Below, in pieces: positions 2,785 to 21,128 of a DNA stretch of 32,000 bases. Made by a program: the position numbers and the translations under genes. Position 1 is the stretch's first letter. Every line of letters begins with the position of its first letter. The DNA is from Candidatus Baldrarchaeum yapensis (lineage in GTDB: Archaea > Asgardarchaeota > Baldrarchaeia > Baldrarchaeales > Baldrarchaeaceae). The stretch is from assembly GCA_016840465.1 (NCBI GenBank), contig JAEOSH010000001.1, forward strand, positions 32,179-64,178. The letters are read 5' to 3'. The notes below the pieces were generated by a model, which did not search any database, was not told the DNA's origin, and was given only the letters and a program-made list of their open reading frames with translations.

Positions 2785-3105
2785 ATGTGCGAGTTTTCGG
2801 TAGTTGTGAGGGAAGGAAGTTCCGAGAAGGAGGTAGCACGAGACATCATCTATGCAAGAATGTGCGATAGAGGTCTTACGTTGAGAAGTTTCCTTGATGA
2901 AAAAACCGCCAATTCGGCGGTGATTTTTGAGGTAGATGTGACTAAGGAGAGAATGGTGTTGATACGTGCGCCGTTCATTGAGCATTTTCTAAAGCTTTTG
3001 CTGATGTATGAAAGTTATAGAAGGGGCGAGAGGGACGCTGACGCTGTTAAGAAGATGTTGGATGAATTTTATAGAGAGGTAAAGAAATATTTGGATTCCA
3101 CATAA
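2785..3105 (+). CDS. cooT: CooT-like putative nickel-binding protein with a ~44-aa helical C-terminal extension
   Basis: The N-terminal ~62 aa begin with Met-Cys-Glu (MCEFSVVV...) and continue ...LTLRSFLDEKT...IFEVDVTKERMVLI. This collinear pattern matches CooT proteins I recall, such as MCE..VY......L.DILGE....G.I.EVDL..H.I. Residues 63-106 (FIEHFLKLLLMYESYRRGERDADAVKKMLDEFYREVKKYLDST) are additional. Confidence 0.5.
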   Translation: MCEFSVVVREGSSEKEVARDIIYARMCDRGLTLRSFLDEKTANSAVIFEVDVTKERMVLIRAPFIEHFLKLLLMYESYRRGERDADAVKKMLDEFYREVKKYLDST

Positions 3106-3124: not shown

Positions 3125-3400
3125 ATGGAGGAGGTATTCTTGGTTAAGGCGTACGTGATGATAAACACGAGGCCGGGAAAAGAGACAGAAATAATTAAAG
3201 AAATCTCTAAAATGCCAGAGGTATCAGAAGTTCATAGGGTATTTGGTCCCTTCGATATAGTAGTTGAAATAAAGAGTAGTAGCATGGAGGCGATCGTTGA
3301 TTTGATATTTGAGAAAATACGGAAAATAGACGGGATCGAGAAAACGATTACCGCCATTACCGCCGAATATGAAATAGATGTGCATGATATGCCGATATGA
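3125..3400 (+). CDS. Stand-alone Lrp/AsnC-type ligand-binding (RAM) domain protein
   Basis: The sequence VKAYVMINTRPGKETEIIKEISKMPEVSEVHRVFGPFDIVVEIKSSSMEAIVDLIFEKIRKIDGIEKTITAI is the classic beta-alpha-beta-beta-alpha-beta RAM pattern with no HTH domain. The true start may be the TTG at 3140, which is preceded by GGAGGAGG. Confidence 0.7.
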   Translation: MEEVFLVKAYVMINTRPGKETEIIKEISKMPEVSEVHRVFGPFDIVVEIKSSSMEAIVDLIFEKIRKIDGIEKTITAITAEYEIDVHDMPI

Positions 3401-3402
3401 CT

Positions 3403-4437
3403 TCAGAGAATTGCAAAATGTTCCCTTCCCGACAATTCTCTCGACCCTATTACAACTCGATAGTAAGGAACTCCTCTTTCAGGCATAACTCTTTCTAATT
3501 TTCCATAAACTCTAATACGCTCGTTGACTTCGAGTATTCCGGCAAATACTCCTTCAAACGATACTAATTCTCTTATTGGTTCTACTACGGGGCCCCTTAT
3601 TACAGTTACCTCACTGATTCCGTAAACTGCGGGATTAAACATCGATTCTGAAGTGTCCGATATCGACGCTTCTATCTCTATGGGACCCATCGGAATTATG
3701 CTCTTTTTCCCGTATTTCTCCGTTATTTCACTGTCTTTCTTTACCGGATGCACTGAAAATCTCGTACCTTCAAAAATTCCTAGATTCCATTTCCGCCTGA
3801 GAATTTCACGTGCAACCTCTAAAGGGATGCCGAAAAACTTCGATTTTTCGATACACCACCTCTCCTCGTAAAACTTCCTGATAGTCCTTTTCTTTTCAAG
3901 TTCGAGGATTACCTCCTTGAGAAGCAGGGACTCTTTCCTCCCATAAATTACTAGATCTATATCCGAGATTCGAGGATTATGAATCCCGAGCAGAATAGAT
4001 CCCGTGACTCCGAAGCGACTCTCATCTATTCCGCTTTCTTTGCTTAACAGTTTAACTAATCTCACTAATTTTTCTTGCAAAGGATCTCTAGACTTCAGCC
4101 CTATTATCCTGCTCAACTCTCTCTCCGGAAGGTACCAATTCTCGATACGGGAATGAGGTACCGCTGAAAATGTTATCCTGTTATAAGGGCAATAGTAAAT
4201 ATATTCCGGATAATTCTGTTTAAGAAATTCAAATGTTGCACAGACATCACGCGCGGAATAGAACGAAATTTTTCTCTCGTAACATGACCTGCTGTCACAC
4301 CACAGTCCATCAGATGCTGGTACATATTTTAAATACGCAAATACCCTATCCGGCGGGTGCTCGTACCCAACTATGCAAAATATGAAATTTTCGACCGTCC
4401 TTATGTAGTCCCTATCTTTAAACGGTCTTTTACACAC
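3403..4437 (-). CDS. Uncharacterised Pol-beta-superfamily nucleotidyltransferase, paralog B (344 aa)
   Basis: NTase core is GVTGSILLGIHNPRISDIDLVIYG (G-S ... D-x-D). The N-terminal domain has EHPPDRVFAY and NYPEYIYY. The beta-rich C-terminus reads LVSFEGVF...RIRVYGKLERV...YYRVVIG. It starts at a GTG 7 nt after an AGGAGGT inside the end of paralog A. Confidence 0.75.
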   Translation of the reverse strand: MCKRPFKDRDYIRTVENFIFCIVGYEHPPDRVFAYLKYVPASDGLWCDSRSCYERKISFYSARDVCATFEFLKQNYPEYIYYCPYNRITFSAVPHSRIENWYLPERELSRIIGLKSRDPLQEKLVRLVKLLSKESGIDESRFGVTGSILLGIHNPRISDIDLVIYGRKESLLLKEVILELEKKRTIRKFYEERWCIEKSKFFGIPLEVAREILRRKWNLGIFEGTRFSVHPVKKDSEITEKYGKKSIIPMGPIEIEASISDTSESMFNPAVYGISEVTVIRGPVVEPIRELVSFEGVFAGILEVNERIRVYGKLERVMPERGVPYYRVVIGSRELSGREHFAIL

Positions 4438-4441
4438 AGGC

Positions 4442-5473
4442 TTACCTCCTTATCAGAAAATCGTCCCTGCTATTTCCTAGAATTATCCGATAGTAAGAAG
4501 TTTTATTTTTAACATCAGTAACACGCTCCACATCTCCTCTAACAATAATTATGTCGTTATCATTAGCGAGTTCTGTAAACCTTCCCCTGAATGACACTAC
4601 TTCTTTTATCGCGTCGAGGCCAGCACCGTCTAATACACTGAGAACTTTAACGAGATATCTACACGGCGTGAAAATGGAATCGGAAGCATCTATGACTTTT
4701 GCTTTGACCGTTATACGACCGACCTTCCTATAAATTCTGTCACCATATGTCTCGTTGATCTCTGATGGTTCTTTAACGAACCTTACAAAGAAGTCGACTC
4801 CCTTAAAGACTCCTTGGGAAACCTTCCGGCTTTCCATTAGAAGGAAATCCTCGAAACTTACGTTCATTGCTTGTTTTTTAAATTCGTATAGATCTTTAAG
4901 CTCTGTTAATGTATATCTCCTTAAGTCTTTCTCGGATTCAAGCAATTGGTGTAATGCTTCATACGCTTTTCTGCATTCTTTTTCTCCGTAAATTACGAGA
5001 TCTAAATCCGAATCTTCGGTTTCTAGCCCGACTAAAATGGATCCAGATATCCCAATACTAGATATCGGTATATTCGCCTCCTTAGATATAATTTTGGCTA
5101 GATCAATTGCATATTCCTTTAGTTTTCCGATCTCTTGCGATCCCGCCCTCTTAGATAATAGTTTCCTCAGCTGTTGCCTAGGTTCATAGACAATATTTAT
5201 TCTGTCATGAGGTACGGCTTGCAGTTCCATTCCAAAAACATAATCAAAGTAGACATAGGCGGGATAATTGCTACGGAGGAAGTCATATCTCTCCTTTAAA
5301 TCATACAACTTGGAATATCTTCGTCCGTCGGATCTTAAACGGTTTCCTCTTTCATTCAGGTAGTATCGAACAAAAGCAATCACTCTATCGGGTGGATGCA
5401 CGAGCCCTTTAACGTCAAATATTAAACCTTCCACAGTTTCCACGAATGCTCCTTCAATGATCGATGTTTTCAA
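4442..5473 (-). CDS. Uncharacterised Pol-beta-superfamily nucleotidyltransferase, paralog A (343 aa)
   Basis: NTase core is GISGSILVGLETEDSDLDLVIYG. The N-terminal domain has VHPPDRVIAF and NYPAYVYF. The C-terminus reads VVSFRGRFTE...IIIVRGDVERV...YYRIILG. The track start is a TTG at 5473, overlapping the mptA end by 20 nt. An alternative GTG at 5443 is preceded by GAAGGAG. Confidence 0.75.
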   Translation of the reverse strand: MKTSIIEGAFVETVEGLIFDVKGLVHPPDRVIAFVRYYLNERGNRLRSDGRRYSKLYDLKERYDFLRSNYPAYVYFDYVFGMELQAVPHDRINIVYEPRQQLRKLLSKRAGSQEIGKLKEYAIDLAKIISKEANIPISSIGISGSILVGLETEDSDLDLVIYGEKECRKAYEALHQLLESEKDLRRYTLTELKDLYEFKKQAMNVSFEDFLLMESRKVSQGVFKGVDFFVRFVKEPSEINETYGDRIYRKVGRITVKAKVIDASDSIFTPCRYLVKVLSVLDGAGLDAIKEVVSFRGRFTELANDNDIIIVRGDVERVTDVKNKTSYYRIILGNSRDDFLIRR

Positions 5474-6410
5474 GATTCTTTACCTCTCTTCGTAATTCGC
5501 CAACTTTACTTGTTCGCTTTGCCACAACATCAAAGTTATGGATGCTTTCGTAACTTCTTACTATGACTCTTATCCTTGAGTCTTCCGGCAACCAGTCAAA
5601 TTCTTTGATTATATGTAGGAGGACTGAGCGGGCACAATCCTCCACAAACATGGGGTTTAAGTGTCCCAACCGGATGATTACCTCTTCATCGTTTCTCTTC
5701 AGGACGTCCTCTATCTGTGAACTCACGGATTCGTCTATTATTCGCAATAGGTCTCTCCAGTCTATATTTTTCCCATTATATCGGCGATCTATCTCAACAG
5801 ATACCTTTGCACGCTGATTATGCGATGCTATTGGTATTATGTTCAATATCTTTTCTAATGTCTCCTCACTTAGCCCGATCTCATCGATACGCTTTTTTAA
5901 AAGATTTTTCACGAATTTCTTCACTTGTAATTGCCCGCATGGACATACCAGTAGTCCATAGGTGCTTATTCCCGTCAGAACCTTAGGATCTCCCTTTCTA
6001 GTGTTCAATACCCTCGACCATATACGTATAGGACGCATCATTGAGCCCTGTGTGATCTTTGATCTGTACGGAATCACCGTTATGCCTCTGATGCGCACTT
6101 CAGCTACCGATGCGTACTCGTGATATCGCAACAGCAAATTTGTTGCCTCCAAACAGAACTCCTCGACTGACGTGTAGGGTTTGAAGGTCGCGCGTTCGAC
6201 TATTTCCTCTATTGCGTCGGCGCTTCTAGACATGTGAATACCGCGCATGCTCGGGGGCATATCTATGAAAGCGTCTATTTTCACGGAGATCACAGAGACC
6301 TCTTTGCCATGCAATATCTTAAGTTGCCGAAACATTCCATAAACTCCAACTTTATCCAGTCTTAGCGGTATTTTTGGAAGTTCCGCCTGTACATCAACAT
6401 CATTCGTCAT
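5454..6410 (-). CDS. mptA: GTP cyclohydrolase MptA (type IB/FolE2-like; first step of the methanopterin pterin moiety)
   Basis: Supporting motifs are DVQAELPKIPLRLDKVGVYG, RGIHMSR, LVCPCGQ, ASHNQR and FVEDCARSV, the FolE2/MptA family pattern. The start is moved to the ATG at 6410 (MTNDVDVQ), preceded by GGTGA, because the track start at 6455 would overlap the upstream gene by 56 nt. Confidence 0.8.
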   Translation of the reverse strand: MTNDVDVQAELPKIPLRLDKVGVYGMFRQLKILHGKEVSVISVKIDAFIDMPPSMRGIHMSRSADAIEEIVERATFKPYTSVEEFCLEATNLLLRYHEYASVAEVRIRGITVIPYRSKITQGSMMRPIRIWSRVLNTRKGDPKVLTGISTYGLLVCPCGQLQVKKFVKNLLKKRIDEIGLSEETLEKILNIIPIASHNQRAKVSVEIDRRYNGKNIDWRDLLRIIDESVSSQIEDVLKRNDEEVIIRLGHLNPMFVEDCARSVLLHIIKEFDWLPEDSRIRVIVRSYESIHNFDVVAKRTSKVGELRREVKNLENIDH

Positions 6411-8004
6411 TCTTGTCACCGAATACATCCACGTCTTGTACGTAACTCTTTCCAAGCTTTAAGCATATTTCTGCCTTCTCAAGTTCTCTGCCCAAGTAAA
6501 GAGCGTGAGAAACCGTACCAACTAGCCCCTTACTTAATATTGCAGCAGATAATTTTACAGCACTATTGCCAGAAAAAATACAAGAAATTTCACCATTAGG
6601 TCGATAATGGGCAACGTATATTGAATTTTCGCGATGATTTACCCATATCCTAAAGTATCCGCACTTATCACGTTCAACTTTTCCAGGTAATTTTATTTCG
6701 TTCGTATTTATCACCTTCGCTTCGTGCTTCTTAAACACTTCCTCATATTTTGGATCCCTTTTACTCTTTGCCAGTAATAATGTTAGCCCCACATCCTTCG
6801 GCGGCATTTTATTCATCTTGGCTATGAATGCCATTTTAACAGCTTTCAATAACTCACGTACGGAGTATCTGCTCTTAACACTCTCTTCGGATGTCAATAT
6901 AACCCCCGCTCCTAGTTCCACCGCAATTGACGCTAAAAGAGCGTTTACGCCAGTGGTATCCACATCCATAAGATCTGTAACGTTCCTTGCACCTAATAAC
7001 AAGGGTGTGTCACCATCAAATTTTCTGAAGACTATTGCTCTATGCAGGGAATTTACTATCCCTGGAAAGACTGGTGGATATATTATGGGATCCGCGAGTA
7101 TTTTTCGAAAGCCCTTCTTACGGGCGTCATTTATGAGATTTATTAGGGTCTTCACCACCTGTTCAGCATTCATCACGTATTCGACCTGCTTCTGACCTAT
7201 CGATGGAACTATCACTATTCCCACATCTTCTGGAAGAGAATTCAGAAGATGCGAATTCTCTAAGCCTATACTTAACACCATGTCGATACCGGCATCGACC
7301 GCCGCTTCTATGTCCTCGTCAAAAACACTATCAACACTTAGTACTAGGTTTCTTCCGATTTCGCTACGAAGTCCCTTTACTACCTCCATTATCTTCTCAG
7401 GATGTGGCGCGGAAGGACTTCCGCCTAAGTCGATAATGTGTGCACCGCTCTTAATATAGTATTTTACTAGCGAAAGTATTTCTCCCAACGGGCGTTCTAC
7501 GACATTATCCACTTCTGCTAAAATCTTCGGCATGCAATCAGTTCCTACTTTCAAACGTCTTCCCGATCTACCAATCATGAAGTTCCTAAGATTATCTATT
7601 TCGACCTCTCGTTCCTTGTTATCGATTTCCCCCAGATATTTCTTCAGAATAGAAGTTTTTAGTAGTAGATCGGCTGGTTCTATAGGTGATAGGTTTATTT
7701 TTCCCCTTAGAAGGTATGAAACCACAAATGGTATGTCGGAGGCGTACCTCGGACCCTTGACTATAGTTACTCCTAACTCCTTTCCAATTTCGGATAAATC
7801 TCCGCGTACCATCCCGGATACCATAATTAGGTCGTATTCTTTCAAATCTCCCCGTCGTTTGAGATGTTTCTTCAGGAAGTGTGGTGTCATGAGTGCGGCG
7901 ACATCTATGGGCAATACTTCGACATCCGCACTAACCGGAAGTTTTTTAGAAATTTCTTCTAGAAGCTTAGCCGCCAATCTACCCGTTACCAGAAGAATTT
8001 TCAT
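6400..8004 (-). CDS. Archaeal dihydropteroate-synthase-related protein (MJ0107/TIGR00284-like: N-terminal domain, pterin-binding barrel and DUF4346-like C-terminal domain)
   Basis: 534 aa. The central region (IIDLGGSPSAPHPEKI...LSVDS...AGIDMVLSI...ILADPI) resembles a DHPS pterin-binding barrel. The C-terminal region (GYFRIWVNHRENSIYVAHY...GNSAVKL...HALYLGRELEKAE) matches the small-protein-like domain described for this archaeal family. It lies between dmrX and mptA. Confidence 0.7.
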   Translation of the reverse strand: MKILLVTGRLAAKLLEEISKKLPVSADVEVLPIDVAALMTPHFLKKHLKRRGDLKEYDLIMVSGMVRGDLSEIGKELGVTIVKGPRYASDIPFVVSYLLRGKINLSPIEPADLLLKTSILKKYLGEIDNKEREVEIDNLRNFMIGRSGRRLKVGTDCMPKILAEVDNVVERPLGEILSLVKYYIKSGAHIIDLGGSPSAPHPEKIMEVVKGLRSEIGRNLVLSVDSVFDEDIEAAVDAGIDMVLSIGLENSHLLNSLPEDVGIVIVPSIGQKQVEYVMNAEQVVKTLINLINDARKKGFRKILADPIIYPPVFPGIVNSLHRAIVFRKFDGDTPLLLGARNVTDLMDVDTTGVNALLASIAVELGAGVILTSEESVKSRYSVRELLKAVKMAFIAKMNKMPPKDVGLTLLLAKSKRDPKYEEVFKKHEAKVINTNEIKLPGKVERDKCGYFRIWVNHRENSIYVAHYRPNGEISCIFSGNSAVKLSAAILSKGLVGTVSHALYLGRELEKAEICLKLGKSYVQDVDVFGDKNDE

Positions 8005-8014: not shown

Positions 8015-8737
8015 CTATAAACTCTTTAAGATCTCCAATATTCTACTCGGAGATTCCAAAACCGTTATTCCCTCCATTCTGGATAACTTCCTCAGGTTTC
8101 TGATTTCCACATCTCTAACCTTTGTCTTCACTTTCATGCCAAATGATAGAGCCCCGTATTTACAGAGATTAACACAAATTTTACAACCTATGCAACGTTG
8201 TAAGTCCACGGTGATCTTTCCCTCCACTACTTTTAACGCAACGGTAGGACAATTCTTAAGTGGAGGGCAATCTTCACATCCCCTGCAAATGTCCCTATTG
8301 GCGATAAGGGGTAATGTTGCATCTACGTATCTGCCTCCTATGTCGGTGGGCAAAATGTACACGGGAGTGTCTGCTTTTATTGCCTGAGAAACAGCTGCCG
8401 TGATCAACGTATCCGAGATTCCGTGAACTATTTTTGCAATAGTATTGGAGGTGGCAGGAGCAACTATAAGTGCATTATACATTCTTAAAGAAAATCGTCC
8501 TATCTTAGGGAAACTACTCCCCTGCTCGCTTTCCCTTATTATTTCCGAATAGTAAGACCCATCCGATACCTCACTGAGGCGGTTCCATATTCCGTACATT
8601 CGCGCTACTTCCTCTCCCGCCTTTGATATGAAAATTGTCACCTTTATTGGCAAATTTTTTACTGCCCATCTGAAAACCTCAAAAGTTTCCAGTAGGAACT
8701 GCCCGCCACCAGTTATGCCCCACGCAACTCTCTTCAC
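8015..8737 (-). CDS. dmrX: Iron-sulfur flavoprotein, DmrX-like dihydromethanopterin reductase
   Basis: The N-terminal flavoprotein (AfpA/DmrB-like) domain reads VAWGITGGG...ALIVAPATSNTIAKIVHGISDTLIT. The C-terminus carries two Cys motifs, CRGCEDCPPLKNCP and CIGCKICVNLC. The GTG start overlaps the upstream stop (GTGA). It is embedded in the H4MPT cluster. Confidence 0.65.
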   Translation of the reverse strand: MKRVAWGITGGGQFLLETFEVFRWAVKNLPIKVTIFISKAGEEVARMYGIWNRLSEVSDGSYYSEIIRESEQGSSFPKIGRFSLRMYNALIVAPATSNTIAKIVHGISDTLITAAVSQAIKADTPVYILPTDIGGRYVDATLPLIANRDICRGCEDCPPLKNCPTVALKVVEGKITVDLQRCIGCKICVNLCKYGALSFGMKVKTKVRDVEIRNLRKLSRMEGITVLESPSRILEILKSL

Positions 8738-9825
8738 ATTCTAGCACCACTTGTAAATTTGCTTCTTAAACTCTCTATTTCGTCGAAAAATATATGATCG
8801 AGAACTGTGCCCGCCGCTTCCTTAATTTTCATCACATCAACCAGCTTCTTGTAAATGCCCCCACTGAGACCATCAGCAATTATGGCTGCACCCTGCGCGG
8901 CCTCTTTAGCGACACGTGCAAACCCCTTAATTGTCCGTACGGGGGCTATCTTTACTAAGTATTCTCGTAATATTCCTAGAAAGGTGTTTATTCTTGCTAA
9001 CCTGCCGGACACCAGTATTTCGCGCGGATCTTGTAGTACCGCCAGTAATGAAAAAACGTCCTTTATTAGCCCTTCAGTTAATGCCTTTATTGCAATTCTG
9101 ACGCGTTCATCATACTCGGCAAGTTTAAATAATTCTTCCGGCGTTGCGTTTTCGCATCCTGCTATATACACTGCACCTCCCTTGTAGATTGTTGTTTTTA
9201 ACAAACTTCCCATGAGGTAAGCGAGTTCCGCGTCAAGCGCTCCACACGCCCTTAACCCTATATGTCCTTCTGCACCTCCGATGCCGTCTATTATTCTCCC
9301 ATCGTCTATTGCCAGCACTGCATTGAAGCCAGTGCCACTTTCAATAAGTATGAATCTCGTCTCCTCTATCGGTATTTGTAAGTTCTCCGATTGATCCACT
9401 ATCGCCAAAGCAGCCACGCAAACCTTATCAGCGGTGCCCATATCGATTTTATTCACTTTCCTATGGATAGGTACTGTAGGAAGATGTTTTACTCCCGGAA
9501 TCACGTAAGCGGGTATTTCCTCTTCTATAAGCAGTTTTATTACAGAAGTAAGCCCGACAATTTCCTCTTTGCCTTCTCTTTTCAATGTCATTAAGAATAT
9601 GTCAGCATCACTTATTTCAGACACTTTTTTAAGAGGGAGACCAAAGCCGCTGGGAGCAACTACCATATCAACTTCCTTAAGAGATTTCAGAATGTCGACT
9701 ATTATCCTAGGATTCTTCAGGACACGGCGTGTCGGAATAGACACATCTAATATCAAGGCACCATCTTCCAGCCCAACTAAATCCCAAGATCCCGTTCCAG
9801 GATCTATTCCCACAACTCTAGTCAT
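8734..9825 (-). CDS. ASKHA-fold (acetate/sugar kinase-Hsp70-actin) protein, DUF1464-like, function unknown
   Basis: It has an N-terminal phosphate-1-like motif VVGIDPGTGSWDL, later ESGTGFNAV and GIGGAEGHIG motifs, and is about 360 aa. The ATG at 9825 (MTRVVGID) is preferred over the track TTG at 9840. Confidence 0.6.
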   Translation of the reverse strand: MTRVVGIDPGTGSWDLVGLEDGALILDVSIPTRRVLKNPRIIVDILKSLKEVDMVVAPSGFGLPLKKVSEISDADIFLMTLKREGKEEIVGLTSVIKLLIEEEIPAYVIPGVKHLPTVPIHRKVNKIDMGTADKVCVAALAIVDQSENLQIPIEETRFILIESGTGFNAVLAIDDGRIIDGIGGAEGHIGLRACGALDAELAYLMGSLLKTTIYKGGAVYIAGCENATPEELFKLAEYDERVRIAIKALTEGLIKDVFSLLAVLQDPREILVSGRLARINTFLGILREYLVKIAPVRTIKGFARVAKEAAQGAAIIADGLSGGIYKKLVDVMKIKEAAGTVLDHIFFDEIESLRSKFTSGARM

Positions 9826-9843
9826 TATTTCCACTTCCAAGAA

Positions 9844-10821
9844 TTATAAGACTCGGATTTCCGCGCCGGTATTATTTGCTCTTGCAACAAAGACTTGGCC
9901 ACCGATCTTGCTTAAAAATTCCTTCGTCTTTCTCATAAGTTCTATTGCTTCGTCGTATCCTTCAATAACACCATAGACAGCAGGCCCGAACGAACTCATC
10001 CCGGCCCCGTAAGCTCCCTTCTTTCTCATGAAGTCCATGAGTTCCCTAATCAGTGGCGATTGCAGATTCACCTCTACCTTCTTGAAGCCCACGTTCTGTA
10101 TCATAGAGAGCCCTTCACCGAAAGAAGCTATGTCCTTTTCTACGATTGCTGGAAGAATTTTCATCAGTATTATATGAGATAAGATTCTAACTTCATCGAC
10201 AGATATCGGACAGTACTTTTGGAATATCTCTATCTCCCTCACCCCATGGGCTCCCCTCTCCACATTCGGAATTGCAACGACGAACATCCAATCCGCAGGA
10301 AGTGCATAACGAACCAGAAGGGGTGCAGGTGGCGCTCTTGACGCGGAAGATGGAAGATATGTCTCTTTTTGTTTACCTTTACCAAATGTGTGGCCCCCAT
10401 CGAGTATGAAGCCACCGCCCTCAAATGCAGCAACACCTATCCCTGAAGTGCCGCCTCGCCCAGCTATTCTTGCCAGTTCTCTGACAGAAGCTTCGATACC
10501 GAATAATGTTGTTATACCTTTTGCCACTGCGAGCAACAACTGGGTCGTAGAACCTAATCCAACATGCTTGGGTATTTGACTTTTTATTTCGATATGCACA
10601 CCGGATTCTATTTTGTAACGTTGAAGTATCTTTTCGGCAATGGAAATCACTCGGTCGTCCTTAACGTTGACAGTTATGCCCTCATCCCGCTCACTTACCT
10701 CTAGTATAACATTCGGATACTCCAGTGCTACTCCTATTCCTCCATCGATCCTGCCAAGTGCGCCATTTAAATCTATGAGTGTAAAATGGAGACGACAGGG
10801 GGTTTTAACGTATACCTTCAT
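9844..10821 (-). CDS. Beta-ribofuranosylaminobenzene 5'-phosphate (beta-RFAP) synthase (GHMP-kinase fold; first committed step of methanopterin biosynthesis)
   Basis: Supporting motifs are MKVYVKTPCRLHFTLIDLNGALGRIDGGIGVAL, PKHVGLGSTTQL, GRGGTSGIGV..FEGGGFILDGGH and AYGAGMSSFGPAVYG, the pattern I recognise for the MJ1427/AF2089 family. Confidence 0.8.
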   Translation of the reverse strand: MKVYVKTPCRLHFTLIDLNGALGRIDGGIGVALEYPNVILEVSERDEGITVNVKDDRVISIAEKILQRYKIESGVHIEIKSQIPKHVGLGSTTQLLLAVAKGITTLFGIEASVRELARIAGRGGTSGIGVAAFEGGGFILDGGHTFGKGKQKETYLPSSASRAPPAPLLVRYALPADWMFVVAIPNVERGAHGVREIEIFQKYCPISVDEVRILSHIILMKILPAIVEKDIASFGEGLSMIQNVGFKKVEVNLQSPLIRELMDFMRKKGAYGAGMSSFGPAVYGVIEGYDEAIELMRKTKEFLSKIGGQVFVARANNTGAEIRVL

Positions 10822-10881: not shown

Positions 10882-11550
10882 CTAAATTGCCCTTTTAAAC
10901 CTCTCGTGAATATCCTCAATCAGAGATCTCGTTAGACGTAGGTACTCGGAATCCGGAGCAGTCCTCTTTATGATATCGTAGCATATATGTAACATCTGCA
11001 AAAGTAGCAGAGAGTCTCGGAGTCTTTTTTCTTCGATCGCTGCCAAAAGCCTACTAGCGGCGACTAGCGCTTCTACGAAGCACCCTTCAGCGCGGCAGTA
11101 AGGCCTTATAATCGCACCTTCCCTTGATACCCCCTCTATGTGCACAACTTCGCATATTATTGTCGCTCTGCCACCTGAAATTCCACACATGTTGCACATT
11201 CTGACCTCTATCCAAAACTTACTATCTTTTAATACTGGCGCATTGACAACTTTAGCATGTTTGAAACAGTTTGGTGGTAGTTCGGGTTCTGAGGGTCCTT
11301 TTCCCCAGCCCTTGAAAACTGCATTGTAGAGGATGTTTGGCTCGTATATGAACTCGATGACAGCACAACGGTGATGAAGAATGTTTTTATAGGTATCTGA
11401 TGTTACATACGGGCGTATCACGATGTGTTCCATATCTGGGGTGCTTATTCCCATCATTGCGATGTTTGGCGTCGTGCCATCGATGTGATAGGTCGCTACT
11501 AAAGCTTCGTAGATCCAATTTTTTCTTAACCCTATGGCTGTAAGTTTCAT
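10882..11550 (-). CDS. DUF447-family protein (FMN-binding split-barrel-like), H4MPT-associated, function unknown
   Basis: 222 aa. The N-terminal segment IYEALVATYHIDGTTPNIAMMGI...IVIRPYVTSDTYKNI resembles the DUF447 N-terminal domain. It is the first gene of the H4MPT operon. Confidence 0.55.
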   Translation of the reverse strand: MKLTAIGLRKNWIYEALVATYHIDGTTPNIAMMGISTPDMEHIVIRPYVTSDTYKNILHHRCAVIEFIYEPNILYNAVFKGWGKGPSEPELPPNCFKHAKVVNAPVLKDSKFWIEVRMCNMCGISGGRATIICEVVHIEGVSREGAIIRPYCRAEGCFVEALVAASRLLAAIEEKRLRDSLLLLQMLHICYDIIKRTAPDSEYLRLTRSLIEDIHERFKRAI

Positions 11551-11586: not shown

Positions 11587-11595
11587 CTTATATTT
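11587..11595 (-). promoter_or_regulatory. Candidate TATA box for the H4MPT operon (AAATATAAG on the minus strand)
   Basis: It lies about 40 nt upstream of the DUF447 ATG (11550). A GGTG sits 7 nt before the ATG. The position fits an archaeal TATA at about -26 and a short leader. Confidence 0.3.
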
Positions 11596-11643: not shown

Positions 11644-13005
11644 ATGGCGGATCTTGAGGGAATTTGCAGAAAGATGATCTCCGAGGATAGACGCATTGAA
11701 GAGATCTTACAAAAGCTTGTCGATGAAATACTCTTTTACAAGAAGATCGACAGAGACCTCGCTGAGCGGCTAGCGGCCGCCGTAGTAAAAGAAGTCAAGA
11801 TGAGTCTTAAAATACCAGATGACGATAAAATCAGGAGAATAATTTATTATCCAGTTGCGGGAGTAACCGCCGGGCAACAGGGACTCGGGAGTAGAGGAGA
11901 GGGAGATTTCTTTGCTCATAGGAAAATCGCGGAGATAATCTCTTCAAGTGGGTTGCGTGCATTTCTTGATGTAAGAGCACACGACGATGCCGGTGCCGTT
12001 AATGTTGATGGTGCTGGACTTATAGTTGCATCAGTTGATGGAATACATTCCAGATTATCAGAGTATCCCTTCTTGGCTGGCTTTCACGCAACGAGAGCCG
12101 CACTTAGGGATGTATATGTGAAGGGGGCGCGCCCTGTCGGCATATTGATAGATATACACTTAGCGGATGATGCCGATATCGGGAAACTTTTCGACTTTAT
12201 TGCCGGTTGTACAACTGTTTCTAAGCTTGCAGGTATCCCGATAATCGGCGGAAGTACACTAAGAATAGGAGGAGATATGGTAATAGGTACTAGAATTTCG
12301 GGATGTGTTGTAGCCATAGGGGTTTCCGTGGTTCCAGGCTACCTCTTAAAACGCCAGAACATCAGGCCCGGGGATTTGATTATTTGCACAGAGGGTAGTG
12401 GTGGGGGTACCATAACAACAACGGCCATATTTTCTGGGAACTTTGATGTAATTTTAGAAACCTTGAACCTGCAGTTTATAAAGGCATGTGAGGCGATTTT
12501 CCGACCAAACATTATTACAAAAATACACGCTGCGAGTGACTGGACAAATGGTGGGCTCAGAGGCGATCTAAACGAAATTTGTAAAACAGTCGGCGTTGGA
12601 GTAGTTGTTGAGGAGGAAAAAGTCAGAAAACTAATGAACCCGAAGGTTCTGGAGATGCTTGACTCTTTAAATATCGACTATTTAGGCGTGAGCATGGATG
12701 CCCTTCTCCTTTTTGCACCACCCGAGAATGTGGACGAAATTATAAACGTTATTAGAAGCACAGGCGTTAAGGTGGATGTAATAGGCGAAGTTACCGAAAA
12801 TGCTGGGGAAAGTATATTGATAAAGAATGGGAAGAAGATTCCGTTAATGCCAAAATATAGAGAGTCTGCTTATACCGAAATAAAGAAAGTGGTTGGAGAA
12901 CTTGCACCACCAAATAAGGAAGAGATCTTCAAAAGAGCTGCAAGGGCCGCACAAGAGGCAATAGAAAAGGTAAAATTTGTAGAAAAACTGATAATGGAAA
13001 GATAA
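11644..13005 (+). CDS. AIR-synthase-related (PurM/HypE/SelD-like superfamily) protein with extra N- and C-terminal helical segments
   Basis: PurM-like N-domain motif: HDDAGAVNVDGAGLIVASVDGIHSRLSEYPFLAGFHATRAALRDVYVKGARP. C-domain motifs: PGDLIICTEGSGGG and ASDWTNGGLRGDL. The gene is divergent from the H4MPT operon. The start is uncertain (ATG 11644 or ATG 11674). Confidence 0.7.
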   Translation: MADLEGICRKMISEDRRIEEILQKLVDEILFYKKIDRDLAERLAAAVVKEVKMSLKIPDDDKIRRIIYYPVAGVTAGQQGLGSRGEGDFFAHRKIAEIISSSGLRAFLDVRAHDDAGAVNVDGAGLIVASVDGIHSRLSEYPFLAGFHATRAALRDVYVKGARPVGILIDIHLADDADIGKLFDFIAGCTTVSKLAGIPIIGGSTLRIGGDMVIGTRISGCVVAIGVSVVPGYLLKRQNIRPGDLIICTEGSGGGTITTTAIFSGNFDVILETLNLQFIKACEAIFRPNIITKIHAASDWTNGGLRGDLNEICKTVGVGVVVEEEKVRKLMNPKVLEMLDSLNIDYLGVSMDALLLFAPPENVDEIINVIRSTGVKVDVIGEVTENAGESILIKNGKKIPLMPKYRESAYTEIKKVVGELAPPNKEEIFKRAARAAQEAIEKVKFVEKLIMER

Positions 13006-13008: not shown

Positions 13009-13698
13009 TCAGCCGCGCTTTAAGGCTCTCATTACGGCGTTCATGTGAACCTCGCCTGCCAGATAAATGCCTCCACTCCCCTCAAATATATCCCAGCCCC
13101 TTGATGCCCTACATCTGAACTGTGCAAGTAAGCCAGCCCTCTGTGCCGCTTGTTCGACAGGTAGTCCGATAAGCCTTTGTGCTACGAACCATGTTGTTCC
13201 ACAGGGAGATCCTCTTAAGACCTCCACCTTAACTATTATTCCGTTTCTTTCCTCCAGAACAAATTTTGGTGCACCAAATTCTTCGGCAAATCTATCAACT
13301 ACCTCGCTTCCGGTCGGAGGTTCAAGAGAACACATTACCCGCGGGGCGATTACCTTTAAAGACGTACCTGCTAAATTTAGGAGTTGCCTTCTTGATCCTA
13401 ACTTCTTCCACGTGAGATCTTCGCCCGGTATTAGCATAGCTTTTATACCCATATCCACCGCAAGCCTTGCAAGATGAAGCGTCAGGTCAGGATGAAGAGT
13501 GTAAGCGATCAGGATATCCGCCGGTTGTAAATCGTTAGAATTTATGTACTTCTCTGGTGAGTCTATAAATGGAGGGAGATCCTTCGGTATTGTCATCACT
13601 CCAACTATTTTGACGTTTTTTCCTCTCCCCTTTATTGTTGCCTCAACCCTTTCTCCTATTTCGCCGCGTTTTATTAAAAACACCCGCACAGAACGCAT
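13009..13698 (-). CDS. DUF166/COG1810-family protein (labelled a putative archaeal thymidylate-synthase-like protein in some databases, from memory)
   Basis: 229 aa. Recognisable motifs are ADILIAYTLHPDL, MCSLEP, LRGSPCGTTWFVAQ and FRCRASRG. It lies 74 nt downstream of cdhE on the same strand. The family assignment is from memory and tentative. Confidence 0.45.
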   Translation of the reverse strand: MRSVRVFLIKRGEIGERVEATIKGRGKNVKIVGVMTIPKDLPPFIDSPEKYINSNDLQPADILIAYTLHPDLTLHLARLAVDMGIKAMLIPGEDLTWKKLGSRRQLLNLAGTSLKVIAPRVMCSLEPPTGSEVVDRFAEEFGAPKFVLEERNGIIVKVEVLRGSPCGTTWFVAQRLIGLPVEQAAQRAGLLAQFRCRASRGWDIFEGSGGIYLAGEVHMNAVMRALKRG

Positions 13699-13772: not shown

Positions 13773-15566
13773 TTAGATCTTGAAGTTTTTTACGAAATCT
13801 ACCATTTTTTCCGGCTCTTTTGGTCCTACTGCGACTTCCCATCCAGTTTTTGACGCTATATCACTGGCTAGATCTTTTAAGTCCTCCGAAACGATGAGTT
13901 TTCTATGCTTAACCAAATTTGCAATACCCGTGCGGTCTAAACACTGCGCTACTGCGTCTCCGCTGACCTCTCCGTCTTTAATTGCTTCTTCCAGCGTTTT
14001 ACCCTTAGTACCAAGGACCACAATCCATGCAGAGACATTTGCTTCGGCAAGCGGCACACGTAATGAATAATGCTCTTTGATATTGCTACTAGTTAGCACA
14101 ACGGGGGCATTCTCGCTCGGTGATTTGACCCCATATACTCCTTCTCTCACCCAGTATGACTTTCTAAGGAACTCAGGTATTCCAGCTGAGTCTCTTGGCC
14201 CTACGTGAACGTCCCATCCGGTTGCATCCTCTAATTCTCCCTTCAATCTTGCCGCAAGACCCGGTATTATTATTGCCCTATGCTTAACCACCTTTTCTAA
14301 ACCTGCCTCCTTCATTGCCTCCGCTATTGAGTCCGCAGTCATGGTTCCGCCTGCCACCGCAGACTCAACATTGATGCCTCCTGTGTCTACCACTAGTAAC
14401 CACGCATCGGCCTTTCCTTCCACGTCGTTTCTTACAAGGTGATACGTTATTGCGAAGTTGCAAGTCACAAGGACTGGTGACCATTCATTTGGATTTCCTA
14501 ACTTCTTAAGTCCTGGCTCAACCGCAGGGTGTATCCGTGGGTCGGTGTAAATGTCCTGCCTGAGGGTTAAAGGTGCAAGAAGGGACCATGTATCAAGCGT
14601 GTGTATAATTAAGATGTCAGCAAACCTCTCAATAAGCATTGAGCAGAGAATAGATTCCATGAAAGCAAGTTCGATTTTTTCCGCTTCAGATAATGACGCA
14701 CCATCTTTTCCTGCCCATACGACAGCTGGTATTCCTAGAAGTGGCCATCCGAGTTCTTTGTCGCCCTTCTCTATCGCCGCCCTTCTTATCATAGTGAATA
14801 TGTCAAGAGTGTCTGCTAATTGTCCTTCCCCAAAGAATGTTCCGGGATCAAGAACTATTTCCTTAATTCCAGCTTTCATGAACGCTCTTACAATGGATTT
14901 CAGCGTCGAAATGTCACCAGGGGCAGAAACCACGACGGGAACATTGTATTTCTGTGCTAGTTTACCGACTTCCTTCCAGTTATCTTTTGTTGCGGCATAA
15001 ATCAATGGTTTTCTCTCTTTAGCCACTTCAAGCCCTGCTTCTAGAACTTTTGGATCGAGACTGCAAAGTATTAATGGTAGTTGACTATTCTCTACAACTT
15101 TCCTTACGCATTCCGCAAATTTTGCAGGATTCCCACTTGTACAGCGTACTGCAATTGCATCGAGCCTGTAGACTTGTCCTACCCTTTCAATCTTGAACTC
15201 GCTAATTCTCTTCACTCTAGCTATGAGTTCATCCTCGGGCATTTCGTCATGAACGTCAATCGCAAAGACTGTAGGATTATAAAATGTTAATTCATGTCTG
15301 TACATCACTTCTTCTCCGCCAATTGTTACTGCATTATCCCCAACGCCTATTACCACTGGCCTCACTGGTGGTGTTAGAAGTTCTTCTAACTTCTTTCGCG
15401 CACTCTCATATTTAGGATCCGTAAATAATGGCTTGCATTGTTCAAGTTTGGCTTCTCTTTGTATTAATTTGTAAGCAAACGCCATACAACTATCATATCC
15501 ACATTCCTTACAATTAGTCCCTGGAAGCAATCTATAAACATCAAGCGGTTTCACCCTCTCGGACAT
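13773..15566 (-). CDS. cdhE: ACDS gamma subunit CdhE (large corrinoid/Fe-S subunit, AcsC homolog) with a duplicated C-terminal corrinoid-binding-like domain
   Basis: The N-terminal [4Fe-4S] motif is CKECGYDSCMAFAYKLIQREAKLEQC, followed by a TIM-barrel middle. The first Rossmann-like domain has LLVVDTGGINVESAVAGG...VKHRAIIIPG...TGWDVHVGP. A second collinear copy has WIVVLGTKGKTLEEAIKDG...VKHRKLIVSE...TGWEVAVGP. The ATG at 15566 is preceded by GAGGTG, which spans the cdhD stop. Confidence 0.85.
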   Translation of the reverse strand: MSERVKPLDVYRLLPGTNCKECGYDSCMAFAYKLIQREAKLEQCKPLFTDPKYESARKKLEELLTPPVRPVVIGVGDNAVTIGGEEVMYRHELTFYNPTVFAIDVHDEMPEDELIARVKRISEFKIERVGQVYRLDAIAVRCTSGNPAKFAECVRKVVENSQLPLILCSLDPKVLEAGLEVAKERKPLIYAATKDNWKEVGKLAQKYNVPVVVSAPGDISTLKSIVRAFMKAGIKEIVLDPGTFFGEGQLADTLDIFTMIRRAAIEKGDKELGWPLLGIPAVVWAGKDGASLSEAEKIELAFMESILCSMLIERFADILIIHTLDTWSLLAPLTLRQDIYTDPRIHPAVEPGLKKLGNPNEWSPVLVTCNFAITYHLVRNDVEGKADAWLLVVDTGGINVESAVAGGTMTADSIAEAMKEAGLEKVVKHRAIIIPGLAARLKGELEDATGWDVHVGPRDSAGIPEFLRKSYWVREGVYGVKSPSENAPVVLTSSNIKEHYSLRVPLAEANVSAWIVVLGTKGKTLEEAIKDGEVSGDAVAQCLDRTGIANLVKHRKLIVSEDLKDLASDIASKTGWEVAVGPKEPEKMVDFVKNFKI

Positions 15567-15576
15567 ATTGTACACC

Positions 15577-16773
15577 TCATACTTTCATTGATACCCAATT
15601 GTAGAACATGGACACTTCCGCTTTTTTGTCAGAGATGAGAAAGTCTCTTATAGTTTTCACTATTTTTACCGCTGCTGGGTGTAACATCATTAGGAGATCA
15701 CATCCTGCAAGCATAAGTCCTATCCCTGTCGTTGCTTCCCAGAGTGGACCACGATATTCTGGCGGGCCCCATTCAGGTGCTTTTTTCTGTGATAACCATG
15801 CTTCTCTTGCCGCCCATGCATTCGTTATACCACCACTTATAGGCATCTGTAGAAGTTCCTCGCCTTTAAGCGCTGCTAGGCGTATTCTCTCGAAAACGCT
15901 GAATGCATACTGATAACCATATCCGACTGCTGCTGATGTTGGATCCATGATTATTCGATCCTTCGGAAGACCTTCGCCCATCAGTCTGTTATTAAGTTCC
16001 TTGGCACCTGGGAAGTCTATGAAGCTAAGAGCTATCACATTATGTCCATATTCAACAGCCGCTCTTGCAATTCTAGCGTAATCATTTGCAAGCGATGCTG
16101 TGCTCAATGCGGTTCGTTCTCCTTCAATAACTTCCGCTGCTGCCTCTAGCACTAAAGGATCTTTCTTATTATCACCCGATCCACCTATTATTATTGGTAC
16201 ATCCTTAATTTGCTGGTATATCTCTTCAACAAGCTTAGCTGCTTCCTTTGGAGATTTATCTCCATATTCTGGGCTTGTGCTAATAAGATGAAGGGTTATA
16301 AGGTCCGGTTCGAACTCAAGTGCCTTCTTTGCCCAAGCTATTGGATCCTCCAGCACATCTTCGAAGTGTTGTCTAATCGGCTTTGGCAATCTAATCGGGT
16401 AATCAAATACATCCATCGATACTACTGGTTTGTTCTTCATGGGATAATCGAATCTATAGAATGGAGGAGCCTTTTCCCCGCCTATCTTAATGACCTTCTT
16501 GCGACTGCCTCCCTCGGATTTTGTGGCTCCTATCTGCACTTCAACTATTTCTCCGGGGAATTCTTCACGTGGAATTTCGAAAGGTACGGTTTCCAGCGTT
16601 AGTTCTTCTAAGCTAACGCCTGGTGCTGCGGGTGGTCTTGCTAATGTTGGTAATATATTTAAGACCAATTCTTCAGCCTCTATTTCGACATTTTCCAGCT
16701 CTAACTCTCCAAATTTCTCGAGTATTTCAAGTATCGTTTTGCCAAGTCTTCTAATTTCTTCCTCCCCGCTCAT
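15577..16773 (-). CDS. cdhD: ACDS delta subunit CdhD (small corrinoid subunit, AcsD homolog)
   Basis: 398 aa. TIM-barrel pattern: DLITLHLISTSP...PIIIGGSGD...ALSTASL...GHNVIALS...IIMDPTSAAVGYG. Its position between cdhC and cdhE supports the call. Confidence 0.85.
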   Translation of the reverse strand: MSGEEEIRRLGKTILEILEKFGELELENVEIEAEELVLNILPTLARPPAAPGVSLEELTLETVPFEIPREEFPGEIVEVQIGATKSEGGSRKKVIKIGGEKAPPFYRFDYPMKNKPVVSMDVFDYPIRLPKPIRQHFEDVLEDPIAWAKKALEFEPDLITLHLISTSPEYGDKSPKEAAKLVEEIYQQIKDVPIIIGGSGDNKKDPLVLEAAAEVIEGERTALSTASLANDYARIARAAVEYGHNVIALSFIDFPGAKELNNRLMGEGLPKDRIIMDPTSAAVGYGYQYAFSVFERIRLAALKGEELLQMPISGGITNAWAAREAWLSQKKAPEWGPPEYRGPLWEATTGIGLMLAGCDLLMMLHPAAVKIVKTIRDFLISDKKAEVSMFYNWVSMKV

Positions 16774-16779
16774 AACGAA

Positions 16780-18177
16780 TCACTCTTTCTTCTTCTTCTT
16801 TGGAGGAAGTTCTCTCCTGATGATCATCTTCTCAGCCGTTATCTTCACATTCTTAAATATTATTCTGAATCCGCCAGCAACCGGCACTCCTTCAACTGGA
16901 ACCATCGCTGGAACCATTTCTACTTCTTCTGGTACTTCTTCGGCTTTTTCTTCCATCTTTGCCCATCTTTCGACAACAGGGTGACCCTTCTGCTTCAGGA
17001 ACTCTCTCAATTCTTCAATGGTCATAGCATCCTTCTCGGTTGCTATCTTATCATAAAGTTCTGGCGGAATAGCGTCCTTTACACGTTCCTTTATGTGACT
17101 TGGCATCCACACGACCCTAGACCAGCCACCGTCAGCTTGGAAGAACTTTGGAGATCTCATGTAACCTATCGAAATACCAACGAAACCTTCTACCTGACGC
17201 CCTCCGCCAACTTCATTTGCTAACGCTGAGAACGTTAGTCCTATTACTGTTGGCCCTTTGAAGTTTCTGTCAACAATTCCTATTCCATCAACTTCGGGTA
17301 TGTAGAACGCTATTGCTTCGCAACAACCACATGTTGTGTGCGGATAACCGAACATACTATAAAGGTAAACCCGTTCGACTTCGCCAAGAGATTTTTCCCT
17401 GACCGCCTCGTTTGCTCCTGAATATTCTCCCCTTATAGGATCTAAACATTCTCCCTTCTCAACCCTGAAGTTCGGACCCTTCGGATCAATGCGTGCTGCC
17501 GCCCTTGCGTCAAGCCACGATATTGAGCCGCAAAGCGATAGTCTATCCGGTGTAATTATACAGACGTGCGAAGGAGCAAAAGACTGGCATAGAGTACAAC
17601 CGTAAAATTCCTCCACATCCTCATCGTGAAGGGCTAATGCTCTTGCATCTCTTTCCTCATAAATCTTTAATGCCTTATCAAACCATTCCTTGACCTTTTC
17701 CGGATCCGTTATGAAGGTTACCTGTATCTTTTCAATTATTGGAAACTCCGATTTAAAGAGTCGTATGAGCACCTTTCCAATGTAGTTAAAGGAGTTCAAT
17801 CCCTTCTTAAATGATGATCTGCTTAGCCTTAGCCAAATGTCGTAACGTTGGTTTAGATGCATGAATCCCTCAATGTAGTTGCAGAAGTAGTGAATTCTAC
17901 GCTCAAATACACCTTCGAGATCCTTTTCTAACTCTTTGCCTGCGACCTCGACAATAATTCCAAAGGGATATGATTTCCCTTCCTCGAGGTCCTTGATGTC
18001 GGGGCCAACTATTATTACTTTTCCGTCCTCTACTTCCTCAGGTGGCTTGACCAAGCAAAGTTCGAACTTTTCCTTTACATTAGGACCTCCAAACTCGACA
18101 TACATCTGTTCCTTTCTGATACGCTCACCTTCATATATTGGACCGACATCTACCGGGATGTCTTCAAACATTCCCAT
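16780..18177 (-). CDS. cdhC: ACDS beta subunit CdhC (acetyl-CoA synthase, A-cluster subunit)
   Basis: Supporting motifs are CTLCQSFAPSHVCIITPDR, LCG and HTTCGCCEAIAFY (the Cys-Gly-Cys of the A-cluster). It has a lysine-rich tail, PPKKKKKE. Confidence 0.9.
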   Translation of the reverse strand: MGMFEDIPVDVGPIYEGERIRKEQMYVEFGGPNVKEKFELCLVKPPEEVEDGKVIIVGPDIKDLEEGKSYPFGIIVEVAGKELEKDLEGVFERRIHYFCNYIEGFMHLNQRYDIWLRLSRSSFKKGLNSFNYIGKVLIRLFKSEFPIIEKIQVTFITDPEKVKEWFDKALKIYEERDARALALHDEDVEEFYGCTLCQSFAPSHVCIITPDRLSLCGSISWLDARAAARIDPKGPNFRVEKGECLDPIRGEYSGANEAVREKSLGEVERVYLYSMFGYPHTTCGCCEAIAFYIPEVDGIGIVDRNFKGPTVIGLTFSALANEVGGGRQVEGFVGISIGYMRSPKFFQADGGWSRVVWMPSHIKERVKDAIPPELYDKIATEKDAMTIEELREFLKQKGHPVVERWAKMEEKAEEVPEEVEMVPAMVPVEGVPVAGGFRIIFKNVKITAEKMIIRRELPPKKKKKE

Positions 18178-18180
18178 ACC

Positions 18181-21062: not shown

Positions 21063-21113
21063 TGCTCCGCCACCTTAAGTTCATTTCGGTTCTCTATCTA
21101 AGAGATTCAGAAA

Positions 21114-21128
21114 ATTTAAAATCTTTAT
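21114..21128 (-). promoter_or_regulatory. Candidate proximal cdh promoter (minus strand: CATAAAGATTTTAAAT, a BRE/TATA-like element)
   Basis: It is centred about 55-60 nt upstream of the cdhA TTG, which would give a leader of about 30-35 nt containing the SD. The 11-mer ATAAAGATTTT recurs at 21340..21350. Confidence 0.35.

Follow-up and report, generated by a model that had tools for sequence, protein, structure and literature searches.

Two adjacent genes in a 32,000-nucleotide stretch of the metagenome contig JAEOSH010000001.1 of the uncultured archaeon Candidatus Baldrarchaeum yapensis (this whole stretch is called the window below, and coordinates are window positions unless a locus is named) encode members of a protein family that very probably belongs to the biosynthetic pathway of methanopterin-type cofactors. 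Methanopterin is a carrier of one-carbon units that serves methanogenesis, the anaerobic oxidation of methane and the archaeal Wood-Ljungdahl pathway, as well as the oxidation of formaldehyde in bacteria, and no enzymes are known to attach its ribose-phosphate and hydroxyglutarate moieties. A genome survey in 2011 left approximately seven such unknown proteins (PMC3087415). The family of the two genes, which we call paralog A (open reading frame (ORF) 4442-5473) and paralog B (ORF 3403-4437), is a new, widespread and structurally distinctive branch of the known nucleotidyltransferase (NTase) superfamily, with a predicted role in cofactor biosynthesis. The interpretation is partly supported, in that the level of the pathway is supported and the individual step is a prediction. 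As the best explanation of the whole, we tentatively suggest, by analogy with CitX and MdcG, that A and B act as a methanopterin side-chain enzyme in the step that forms the phosphodiester. The two genes are as follows.

4442..5473, minus strand: NTase paralog A, 343 amino acids, TTG start; the JGI gene call is identical to the ORF; PF01909 match of 24.2 bits at residues 126-184; member of clade A.
3403..4437, minus strand: NTase paralog B, 344 amino acids, GTG start; ORF with its own ortholog clade (clade B, 40-49% identity).

An earlier note on this DNA had proposed a role in the tetrahydromethanopterin (H4MPT) pathway, and this proposal is supported, at the level of the pathway, by the linkage of the family to H4MPT genes elsewhere, which recurs in independent lineages; the refuting case that the note had named, a family without any such linkage, does not hold. 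In the window, a row of eight co-directional genes runs in the order DUF447, RFAP synthase, DUF1464, DmrX, DHPS-like (dihydropteroate-synthase-like), MptA, A and B, and these genes overlap or are separated by gaps of at most 10 nucleotides, with a single exception of 60 nucleotides. The placement of A and B as the last two cistrons of this row, which had also been read from the DNA, agreed with the co-directionality of the genes and with their identities in Pfam and NCBIfam, where those with a named function exceeded the curated cut-offs.

We then compared the neighbourhoods of the 80 best loci of the family, most of which belong to Bathyarchaeia; the locus counts given here refer to this set. 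The commonest conserved neighbour was a CitG-like gene: 49 of the 80 loci had a CitG-family gene (PF01874, 226 bits) no more than 3 kb from the NTase cluster, and 52 had one anywhere in the fetched locus. Mch and FwdABCD were found in 34 loci, and at least one of CitG, Mch/Fwd and the H4MPT-biosynthesis genes in 57. The CitG-family gene was not always placed alike. Most Bathyarchaeia have it divergent; others, like Methanomethylicia (L035), have it co-directional. In Thermofilaceae (L029) it lies downstream, and in Freyarchaeia (L048) at a distance of six genes.

The order of the window itself, from RFAP synthase through DUF1464, DmrX, DHPS-like and MptA to A and B, is found in an uncultured archaeon (L066), and the Freyarchaeia locus L048 has the window order with one unassigned ORF called on the opposite strand between MptA and A. 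In four Bathyarchaeia loci (L005, L007, L010 and L014), genes for DHPS-like, RFAP synthase, DUF1464 and DmrX stand, with other genes between, ahead of CitG, A and B. Linkage to mptA was present in only 2 of the 80 loci, and the exact operon of the window is therefore not general.

A different arrangement was observed in bacteria, where the NTase gene is followed by a DmrB/AfpA-like flavoprotein gene and, farther on, by genes for DHPS-like, DUF447, RFAP synthase, Mpt_N (Mtd-type dehydrogenase) and an ATP-grasp ligase. Moreover, at least 17 clusters (90% identity) consist of fusion proteins in which HPPK (FolK-type, PF01288, E 3e-40), the enzyme that activates the pterin precursor, precedes an A-type NTase (for example, P0278 and P0393-P0408; L085:5626-7143 and L086:1559-3076). 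The fusion gene is followed, across a junction of 1 nucleotide, by the DmrB/AfpA-like flavoprotein gene and then by the DHPS-like gene. The family thus shares operons, neighbourhoods and a fusion, in archaea and in bacteria, with the known H4MPT genes (MptA, RFAP synthase, DHPS-like, DmrX/DmrB, Orf7/CitG-like and DUF447/Orf19). It appears in no list of H4MPT genes that we found in the searchable literature, in which we also found no paper on the family.

Two further features of these neighbourhoods were recorded. The genes MacB/FtsX and GntR beside the HPPK fusions suggest bacterial hosts. On three closely related bacterial contigs (L087-L089), a CoaE gene (dephospho-CoA kinase family) and two proton-antiporter subunit genes precede the A-type NTase gene; owing to this relatedness, the linkage to CoaE and the antiporter is not independent among the three.

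At the protein level, A and B are paralogs that were aligned by BLASTP with 34% identity and 54% positives over 344 columns (E 2e-54), at the upper end of the quarter to a third estimated by eye in the earlier note. All of the motifs that it quoted are present in the sequences: in the N-terminal part, VHPPDRVIAF, NYPAYVY and AVPHDRI in A and EHPPDRVFAY, NYPEYIY and AVPHSRI in B; in the NTase part, GISGSILVG and DLDLVIYG in A and GVTGSILLG and DIDLVIYG in B; and in the C-terminal part, VSFRGRF and YYRIILG in A and VSFEGVF and YYRVVIG in B. The G-S and D-x-D signatures are kept in both proteins, as had been stated. In AlphaFold2 (AF2) models with a predicted local distance difference test score (pLDDT) of 96.3 for A and 95.8 for B, one topology is common to both proteins, with a beta-rich N-terminal domain of approximately 100 residues, an NTase core and a C-terminal beta-barrel. 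The barrel gave local Foldseek matches in the PDB to oligonucleotide/oligosaccharide-binding (OB) folds of the SSB type, and the models and Foldseek together confirmed the proposed three-domain architecture with an OB-like C-terminus. The domains and motifs are located as follows.

5183..5473, minus strand: N-terminal beta-rich domain of A, residues ~1-97, with the HPPDR, NYPxY and VPH motifs (secondary structure of the AF2 model).
4754..5182, minus strand: Pol-beta-type NTase core of A, residues ~98-240 (Pfam NTP_transf_2, Polbeta and MTPAP-like; local Foldseek matches).
5053-5039, minus strand: GISGS of A, read from the sequence.
5008-5000, minus strand: DLD of A, read from the sequence.
4445..4753, minus strand: C-terminal OB-fold domain of A, residues ~241-343, with the clade-A-specific SFRGRF (local Foldseek matches to SSB, RPA and Rim1, probability up to 0.95).
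4011-3997, minus strand: GVTGS of B, read from the sequence.
3963-3955, minus strand: DID of B, read from the sequence.

The NTase core was recognized by PF01909 (NTP_transf_2) at 24.2 bits in A and 23.2 bits in B against a cut-off of 21, with only approximately 60 residues matched; the assignment is real but weak at the level of sequence. Both proteins have the motif pair of the Pol-beta superfamily, hG[GS] and a DxD about 10 residues on, with standard spacing (GISGS...DLD in A and GVTGS...DID in B). Searches of NCBIfam returned no family match for A or B, searches of PDB sequences with A and B returned nothing relevant, and the N-terminal domain of A was covered by neither Pfam nor NCBIfam. 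The alpha-beta-alpha-beta fold of the core resembles that of solved NTases according to local and weak Foldseek alignments (E 0.014-0.5) to 1q78 poly(A) polymerase, 6lbj GLD-2, 4nku Cid1 and the 4x4u CCA-adding enzyme. Foldseek against the PDB detected no full-length relative and nothing at E ≤0.001, the best E value being 0.014 and the query-normalized TM score not exceeding 0.22. The A/B family as a whole is structurally uncharacterized and consists of three domains, namely a novel N-terminal domain, a Pol-beta NTase core and an OB fold. It is similar to the Pol-beta NTases (PF01909; the cores of poly(A), CCA-adding and TUTase enzymes) in the G-S and DxD motifs and the core fold, but its N-terminal domain has no detectable relative and its context is cofactor biosynthesis rather than RNA metabolism or defence. 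Membership among the NTases of defence systems (CBASS cyclases and MNT-type enzymes) was considered and rejected, as PADLOC gave core-level matches of at most 18 bits for A and none for B, and the neighbours are metabolic.

An exhaustive profile search recovered 1,666 representatives at 50% identity, 598 of them at E ≤1e-30, and a motif scan of one genome per species found the clade-A motifs in at least 494 species. Members occur in Bathyarchaeia, Thermofilaceae and other Thermoproteota, many Asgard lineages, Methanomethylicia, Nezhaarchaeota and a bacterial subfamily that includes a match labelled Acidobacteria. The sequences of the 80 loci fall into four clades, A to D, which are 23-32% identical to one another; clade A is present in one copy per locus, and clades B, C and D comprise 26, 41 and 40 sequences, respectively. 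In 70 loci, two to four paralogs stand side by side in the combinations A+B, A+C+D or all four, and A-B pairs may be tandem, convergent or divergent. Because the adjacency persists through these rearranged orientations, a functional partnership of the paralogs is indicated.

The G-S and DxD motifs were invariant in all 188 family members examined, in all four clades (G141, G144, S145, D156 and D158), as were H26 and P27 of the N-terminal domain across clades, and E238 is conserved in all clades. Other positions distinguish the clades, each of which has its own invariant residues. Clade A has 46 polar positions with a conservation of at least 90%, of which 15 are retained in B, 19 in C and 11 in D; the clade-A residues lost in B include R62, E214, D227, R231, R296 and R298. 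D227, the candidate third carboxylate on the strand 226-233, is present in 74 of 81 clade-A sequences and is replaced by Arg in B of the window, by Lys in clade C and by Ile in clade D. The invariant basic residues of clade A are R62, R199, R216, K217, R231, R296, R298 and R329, a set that would suit a polyanionic substrate; R296 and R298 are replaced in B, C and D. Since bacteria have a single A-type copy, A can be regarded as the probable catalytic core and universal core member of the family, judging from these sequence patterns. B, C and D would be diverged partners of A or enzymes for other acceptors. B itself, apparently an anciently diverged accessory paralog, is most likely a partner subunit of A, in which case the two may form a heteromer as the note had suggested, or else the handler of a second acceptor.

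Clades C and D, with 23-30% identity to A and B, take the place of B in most Bathyarchaeia, in the order A> C< D< (for example, L003:10001-14068, L006 and L029), and at three loci all four clades are represented. In clade C, acidic residues (E229, E231, E297 and E298) are invariant at or beside the positions that are basic in clade A (R231, R296 and R298), which may reflect a complementary interface. Two loci of the set are titled bacterial, L045 and L057 (Acidiferrales and Limnocylindrales metagenome-assembled genomes), and both are approximately 42% identical to A. L045 is a typical Bathyarchaeia locus (FwdA/B/D, CitG, ECFS, NT-A, C and D), and L057 has the A, C and D set only; both are probably mis-binned archaeal contigs.

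The CitG-like neighbour provides the basis for a specific reaction. CitG makes a 5''-triphosphoribosyl compound from ATP, and in citrate lyase and malonate decarboxylase, CitX or MdcG moves the phosphoribosyl moiety onto a hydroxyl with the loss of pyrophosphate. In methanopterin, a phosphodiester connects hydroxyglutarate with an alpha-ribosyl-5-phosphate. By analogy, a CitG-like enzyme (the Orf7 family of H4MPT users) would use ATP to place a 5''-triphospho-alpha-ribosyl group on the ribitol 5-OH of the pterin-aminophenyl-ribitol. At the two-metal G-S/DxD site of the NTase, (S)-2-hydroxyglutarate would then attack the alpha-phosphate through its 2-OH, unless a lineage-specific acceptor takes this role, with release of pyrophosphate, leaving the ribose-5-phosphate-hydroxyglutarate diester of methanopterin. 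This second step would be chemically a nucleotidyl transfer and would parallel the reactions of CitX and MdcG. A reaction of this type fits the family, because the G-S/DxD site is intact and the invariant basic residues of clade A are many. The exact step, an attack of hydroxyglutarate on a triphosphoribosyl intermediate made by CitG, is likewise put forward tentatively.

The genomic coupling to a CitG-family gene that goes with a CitX/MdcG-like function was seen in the 49 loci mentioned above, in several orientations and lineages. In agreement with a connection between CitG-like genes and H4MPT, the H4MPT island of methylotrophs is mch-orf5-orf7 (PMC3615186), the gene at the orf7 position has been annotated as a triphosphoribosyl-dephospho-CoA synthase (PMC11533326), and a CitG-like gene is present in a methanogen genome (PMC7386643). 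The CitG-like protein encoded near the NTases scored 55 bits against the NCBIfam CitG/MdcB equivalog cut-off of 280; being far below such cut-offs, it represents a distinct subfamily and is no genuine citrate-lyase enzyme. The logic proposed here follows that of CitG/CitX and MdcB/MdcG, with a CitG-family gene as the commonest neighbour of the family. However, the proposed acceptor is a small hydroxy acid on a cofactor rather than a protein serine, and the A/B family, in contrast to CitX and MdcG, adds the N-terminal and OB domains and comprises two to four paralogs instead of one.

A broader version of this proposal is doubtful. In it, the family would be the missing enzyme system for completing the side chain of methanopterin from a self-activated substrate made by CitG, and the paralog clades (A alone in bacteria; A+B or A+C+D in archaea) would install different terminal acceptors.

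Several observations weigh against a CitX/MdcG-like role in the side chain. No CitG-like gene was detected in approximately 47 kb around the pair, including the 32-kb window (tblastn), 5.5 kb to the left (L001) and about 8 kb to the right (L084), and the bacterial loci have none within 8 kb. The assignment of the step rests on analogy, and the HPPK fusion would fit the pterin branch just as well as the side chain. The cell-extract work of White reportedly named phosphoribosyl pyrophosphate (PRPP), not ATP, as the ribosyl donor; if this is correct, the substrate would be a monophosphate and a different activation would be needed. The family has no model in Pfam or NCBIfam, and no cultured classical methanogen is among the members in the matches listed. 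The organisms in which canonical methanopterin was defined may accordingly lack the family, and it would then not be the universal enzyme for the step. The neighbourhoods in Nezhaarchaeota and Thorarchaeota were uninformative. Finally, since most of the 80 loci are from Bathyarchaeia, the locus counts are not phylogenetically independent, and the linkage to H4MPT genes draws its weight from the differing arrangements, the spread over lineages and the gene fusion.

The parallel with CitX and MdcG is also functional and not evolutionary, because homology to CitX is absent and MdcG is barely touched. Membership in the CitX family (PF03802) was rejected after hhalign of a 110-sequence family profile against E. 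coli CitX gave a probability of 0.3% and an E value of 0.22 in an irrelevant region; no Pfam CitX match was found at E values up to 10. Membership in the MdcG family (PF10620) was likewise rejected at 12.6 bits against a cut-off of 26.5 (E 0.13), in a match confined to the DxD region of the isolated core of A.

The first of the other explanations is the one offered in the earlier note, a nucleotidyl activation as in F420 biosynthesis by CofC and CofD. The NTase would use ATP or GTP to put a nucleoside monophosphate on the phosphoribosyl 5''-phosphate or on a phosphorylated hydroxy acid, and a second transferase would form the diester. The intact G-S/DxD core and the location of the gene within an H4MPT operon are compatible with this, two or three paralogs could divide activation and transfer between them, and extract data are said to report a PRPP-derived monophosphate intermediate and an ATP-dependent addition of hydroxyglutarate. 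Both systems would also build a phosphodiester between a cofactor core and a unit of the 2-hydroxy-acid type through an activated phosphoanhydride. However, CofC has a MobA-like fold unlike that of a Pol-beta NTase, Pfam showed no similarity of the family to CofC-type (MobA-like) NTP transferases, and the neighbourhoods of the 80 loci show no conserved second transferase, CofD-like or otherwise. The conserved partner, the CitG-like enzyme, would already supply a triphosphate. The activation proposed in the note thus received no direct support, the CitG-like neighbour pointing instead to a triphosphate that is already on the substrate, and we consider this explanation unlikely.

The HPPK fusions in at least 17 clusters, together with bacterial contexts rich in early-pathway genes (DHPS-like, RFAP synthase and DUF447), could instead point to a different unassigned ATP-dependent step of H4MPT synthesis. 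Such a step might be the adenylylation of a hydroxyl (for instance the phenolic OH, in the route from hydroxybenzoate to aminobenzene), as NTases such as GlnE and the aminoglycoside NTases adenylylate hydroxyl groups, or a step in the pterin branch beside HPPK. This seems decidedly unlikely to us; it leaves the dominant adjacency of the CitG-like gene (49 loci) unexplained, and fusions link pathways but not necessarily consecutive steps.

In 35 of the 80 loci, the gene next upstream of NT-A, on its strand, encodes a membrane protein of approximately 260 amino acids (for example, L022:1068-1853; L017, L020 and L023). This protein weakly resembles the S components of energy-coupling factor (ECF) transporters, with 32.6 bits for the FolT family against a cut-off of 60 and 32-34 bits for the riboflavin type, and it may indicate uptake of pterin or of a methanopterin precursor; the gene is absent from the window. 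On this basis, the family might serve salvage or remodelling, re-attaching or exchanging the side-chain tail on an imported methanopterin-type precursor, a possibility to which the 35 loci and the conservation of only the ECFS and NT-A pair in several loci of Thermofilaceae and Thermoprotei would correspond. However, the S-component match falls below the family cut-off, and in the window, L048 and L066 the pair lies within a de novo operon that has no transporter, which makes this explanation improbable.

It is highly improbable that the pair is an RNA- or tRNA-directed NTase, or attaches a prosthetic group to a protein as CitX does, and is merely co-transcribed with cofactor genes: the OB fold is SSB-like, the nearest core structures are poly(A) polymerase, GLD-2, Cid1 and the CCA-adding enzyme, and bacterial CitG belongs to a holo-acyl-carrier-protein (ACP) system (E. 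coli locus), but the structural matches are all local and weak (best E 0.014), the recurrent neighbours include no gene for RNA processing, ACP (CitD/MdcC), citrate lyase or malonate decarboxylase, and the H4MPT linkage recurs in unrelated lineages and as a fusion. Full-length similarity to RNA-directed NTases (CCA-adding, poly(A)/TUTase and TiaS-like OB enzymes), including their RNA-binding domains, was not found, and neither the PDB sequence search nor Foldseek gave a match to a characterized RNA-modifying NTase, a match that according to the note would have refuted its proposal.

The junctions of the gene pair are tight. The two ORFs lie where the note had placed them, on the same strand as mptA and packed against it, and the TTG start of A overlaps the mptA stop by 20 nucleotides; this start is supported by the N-termini of homologues, in which E7 and G8 are nearly invariant, and by the JGI gene call. 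The junction between A and B reads ...AGGAGGTAAgcctGTG, and the stop codon of A (4444-4442) is inside AGGAGGTAA. The GTG start of B after an AGGAGGT element within the end of A was confirmed: the GTG is at 4437, six nucleotides past AGGAGGT (4450-4444), and the gap between A and B is 4 nucleotides. Upstream of the row, a TATA-box-like AAATATAAG is a candidate operon promoter, proposed from the letters of the DNA as an inference only. A sigma-70 promoter scan of the window found fewer sites than in shuffled sequences, the sigma-70 model not being applicable to archaea. The remaining features of the row are as follows.

4444..4450, minus strand: AGGAGGT, Shine-Dalgarno-like, inside the end of A, read from the sequence.
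5454..6455, minus strand: mptA, GTP cyclohydrolase MptA (TIGR00294, 255 bits, above the cut-off; PF02649).
6400..8004, minus strand: DHPS-like protein of H4MPT synthesis, with DUF6513, Pterin_bind and PterinBD-DUF4346 (TIGR00284, 338 bits; Pfam).
8015..8737, minus strand: DmrX-type dihydromethanopterin reductase, a flavoprotein with two 4Fe-4S motifs (TIGR02700, 279.5 bits).
8734..9840, minus strand: DUF1464 protein, ASKHA / butyrate-kinase-like (PF07318, 343 bits; weak matches to methanogenesis marker 12 and butyrate kinase).
9844..10821, minus strand: beta-RFAP synthase (NF040726, 401.6 bits).
10882..11550, minus strand: DUF447 protein, first gene of the co-directional row (PF04289 and PF20766).
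11587..11595, minus strand: AAATATAAG, TATA-box-like, approximately 40 nucleotides upstream of the DUF447 ATG in a divergent intergenic region of 93 nucleotides, read from the sequence.

DUF1464 again accompanies the operon in L048, in L066 and in the Bathyarchaeia loci, and in the bacterial cluster L088 DUF447 has the DHPS-like and RFAP-synthase genes as its neighbours; both are candidates for further unassigned H4MPT steps. On the other side of the pair, a CooT-like gene (2785-3105, plus strand) and a gene for a stand-alone AsnC/Lrp ligand-binding (RAM) domain of 91 amino acids (3125-3400, plus strand) converge on the end of B, with stop codons 2 nucleotides apart, and a CooT-like gene is again near the pair in L048, L066 and L031. 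Divergent from the H4MPT operon is an AIR-synthase-related gene (11644-13005, plus strand; AIRS/AIRS_C, PurM/HypE/SelD-like), and a DUF166 gene (13009-13698, minus strand) lies between it and the Cdh cluster.

The window continues with an archaeal Wood-Ljungdahl set at 13773-26351, comprising CdhA-E-like genes (13773-21062), Ftr (21545-22441), Mtd (22537-23388), a polyferredoxin gene and FwdD/FwdB-like genes (24620-26351), and Mch, FwdC and FwdA are located just past the right edge of the window (L084). Because this archaeal Wood-Ljungdahl set is full, the host can be regarded as an H4MPT-dependent, acetogen-like archaeon.

The family provides a concrete and widespread candidate for a late step of methanopterin synthesis, with confident structural models and a defined partner in the CitG-like enzyme. 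It would mark those uncultured archaea and bacteria that make full-length cofactors of the methanopterin type. If the proposed reaction is correct, chemistry of the CitG/CitX type would be extended from protein prosthetic groups to a free coenzyme; on the broader version of the proposal, this would be the first such case, and the paralog clades would determine the structures of methanopterin-type cofactors in Bathyarchaeia, Asgard archaea and Thermoproteota.

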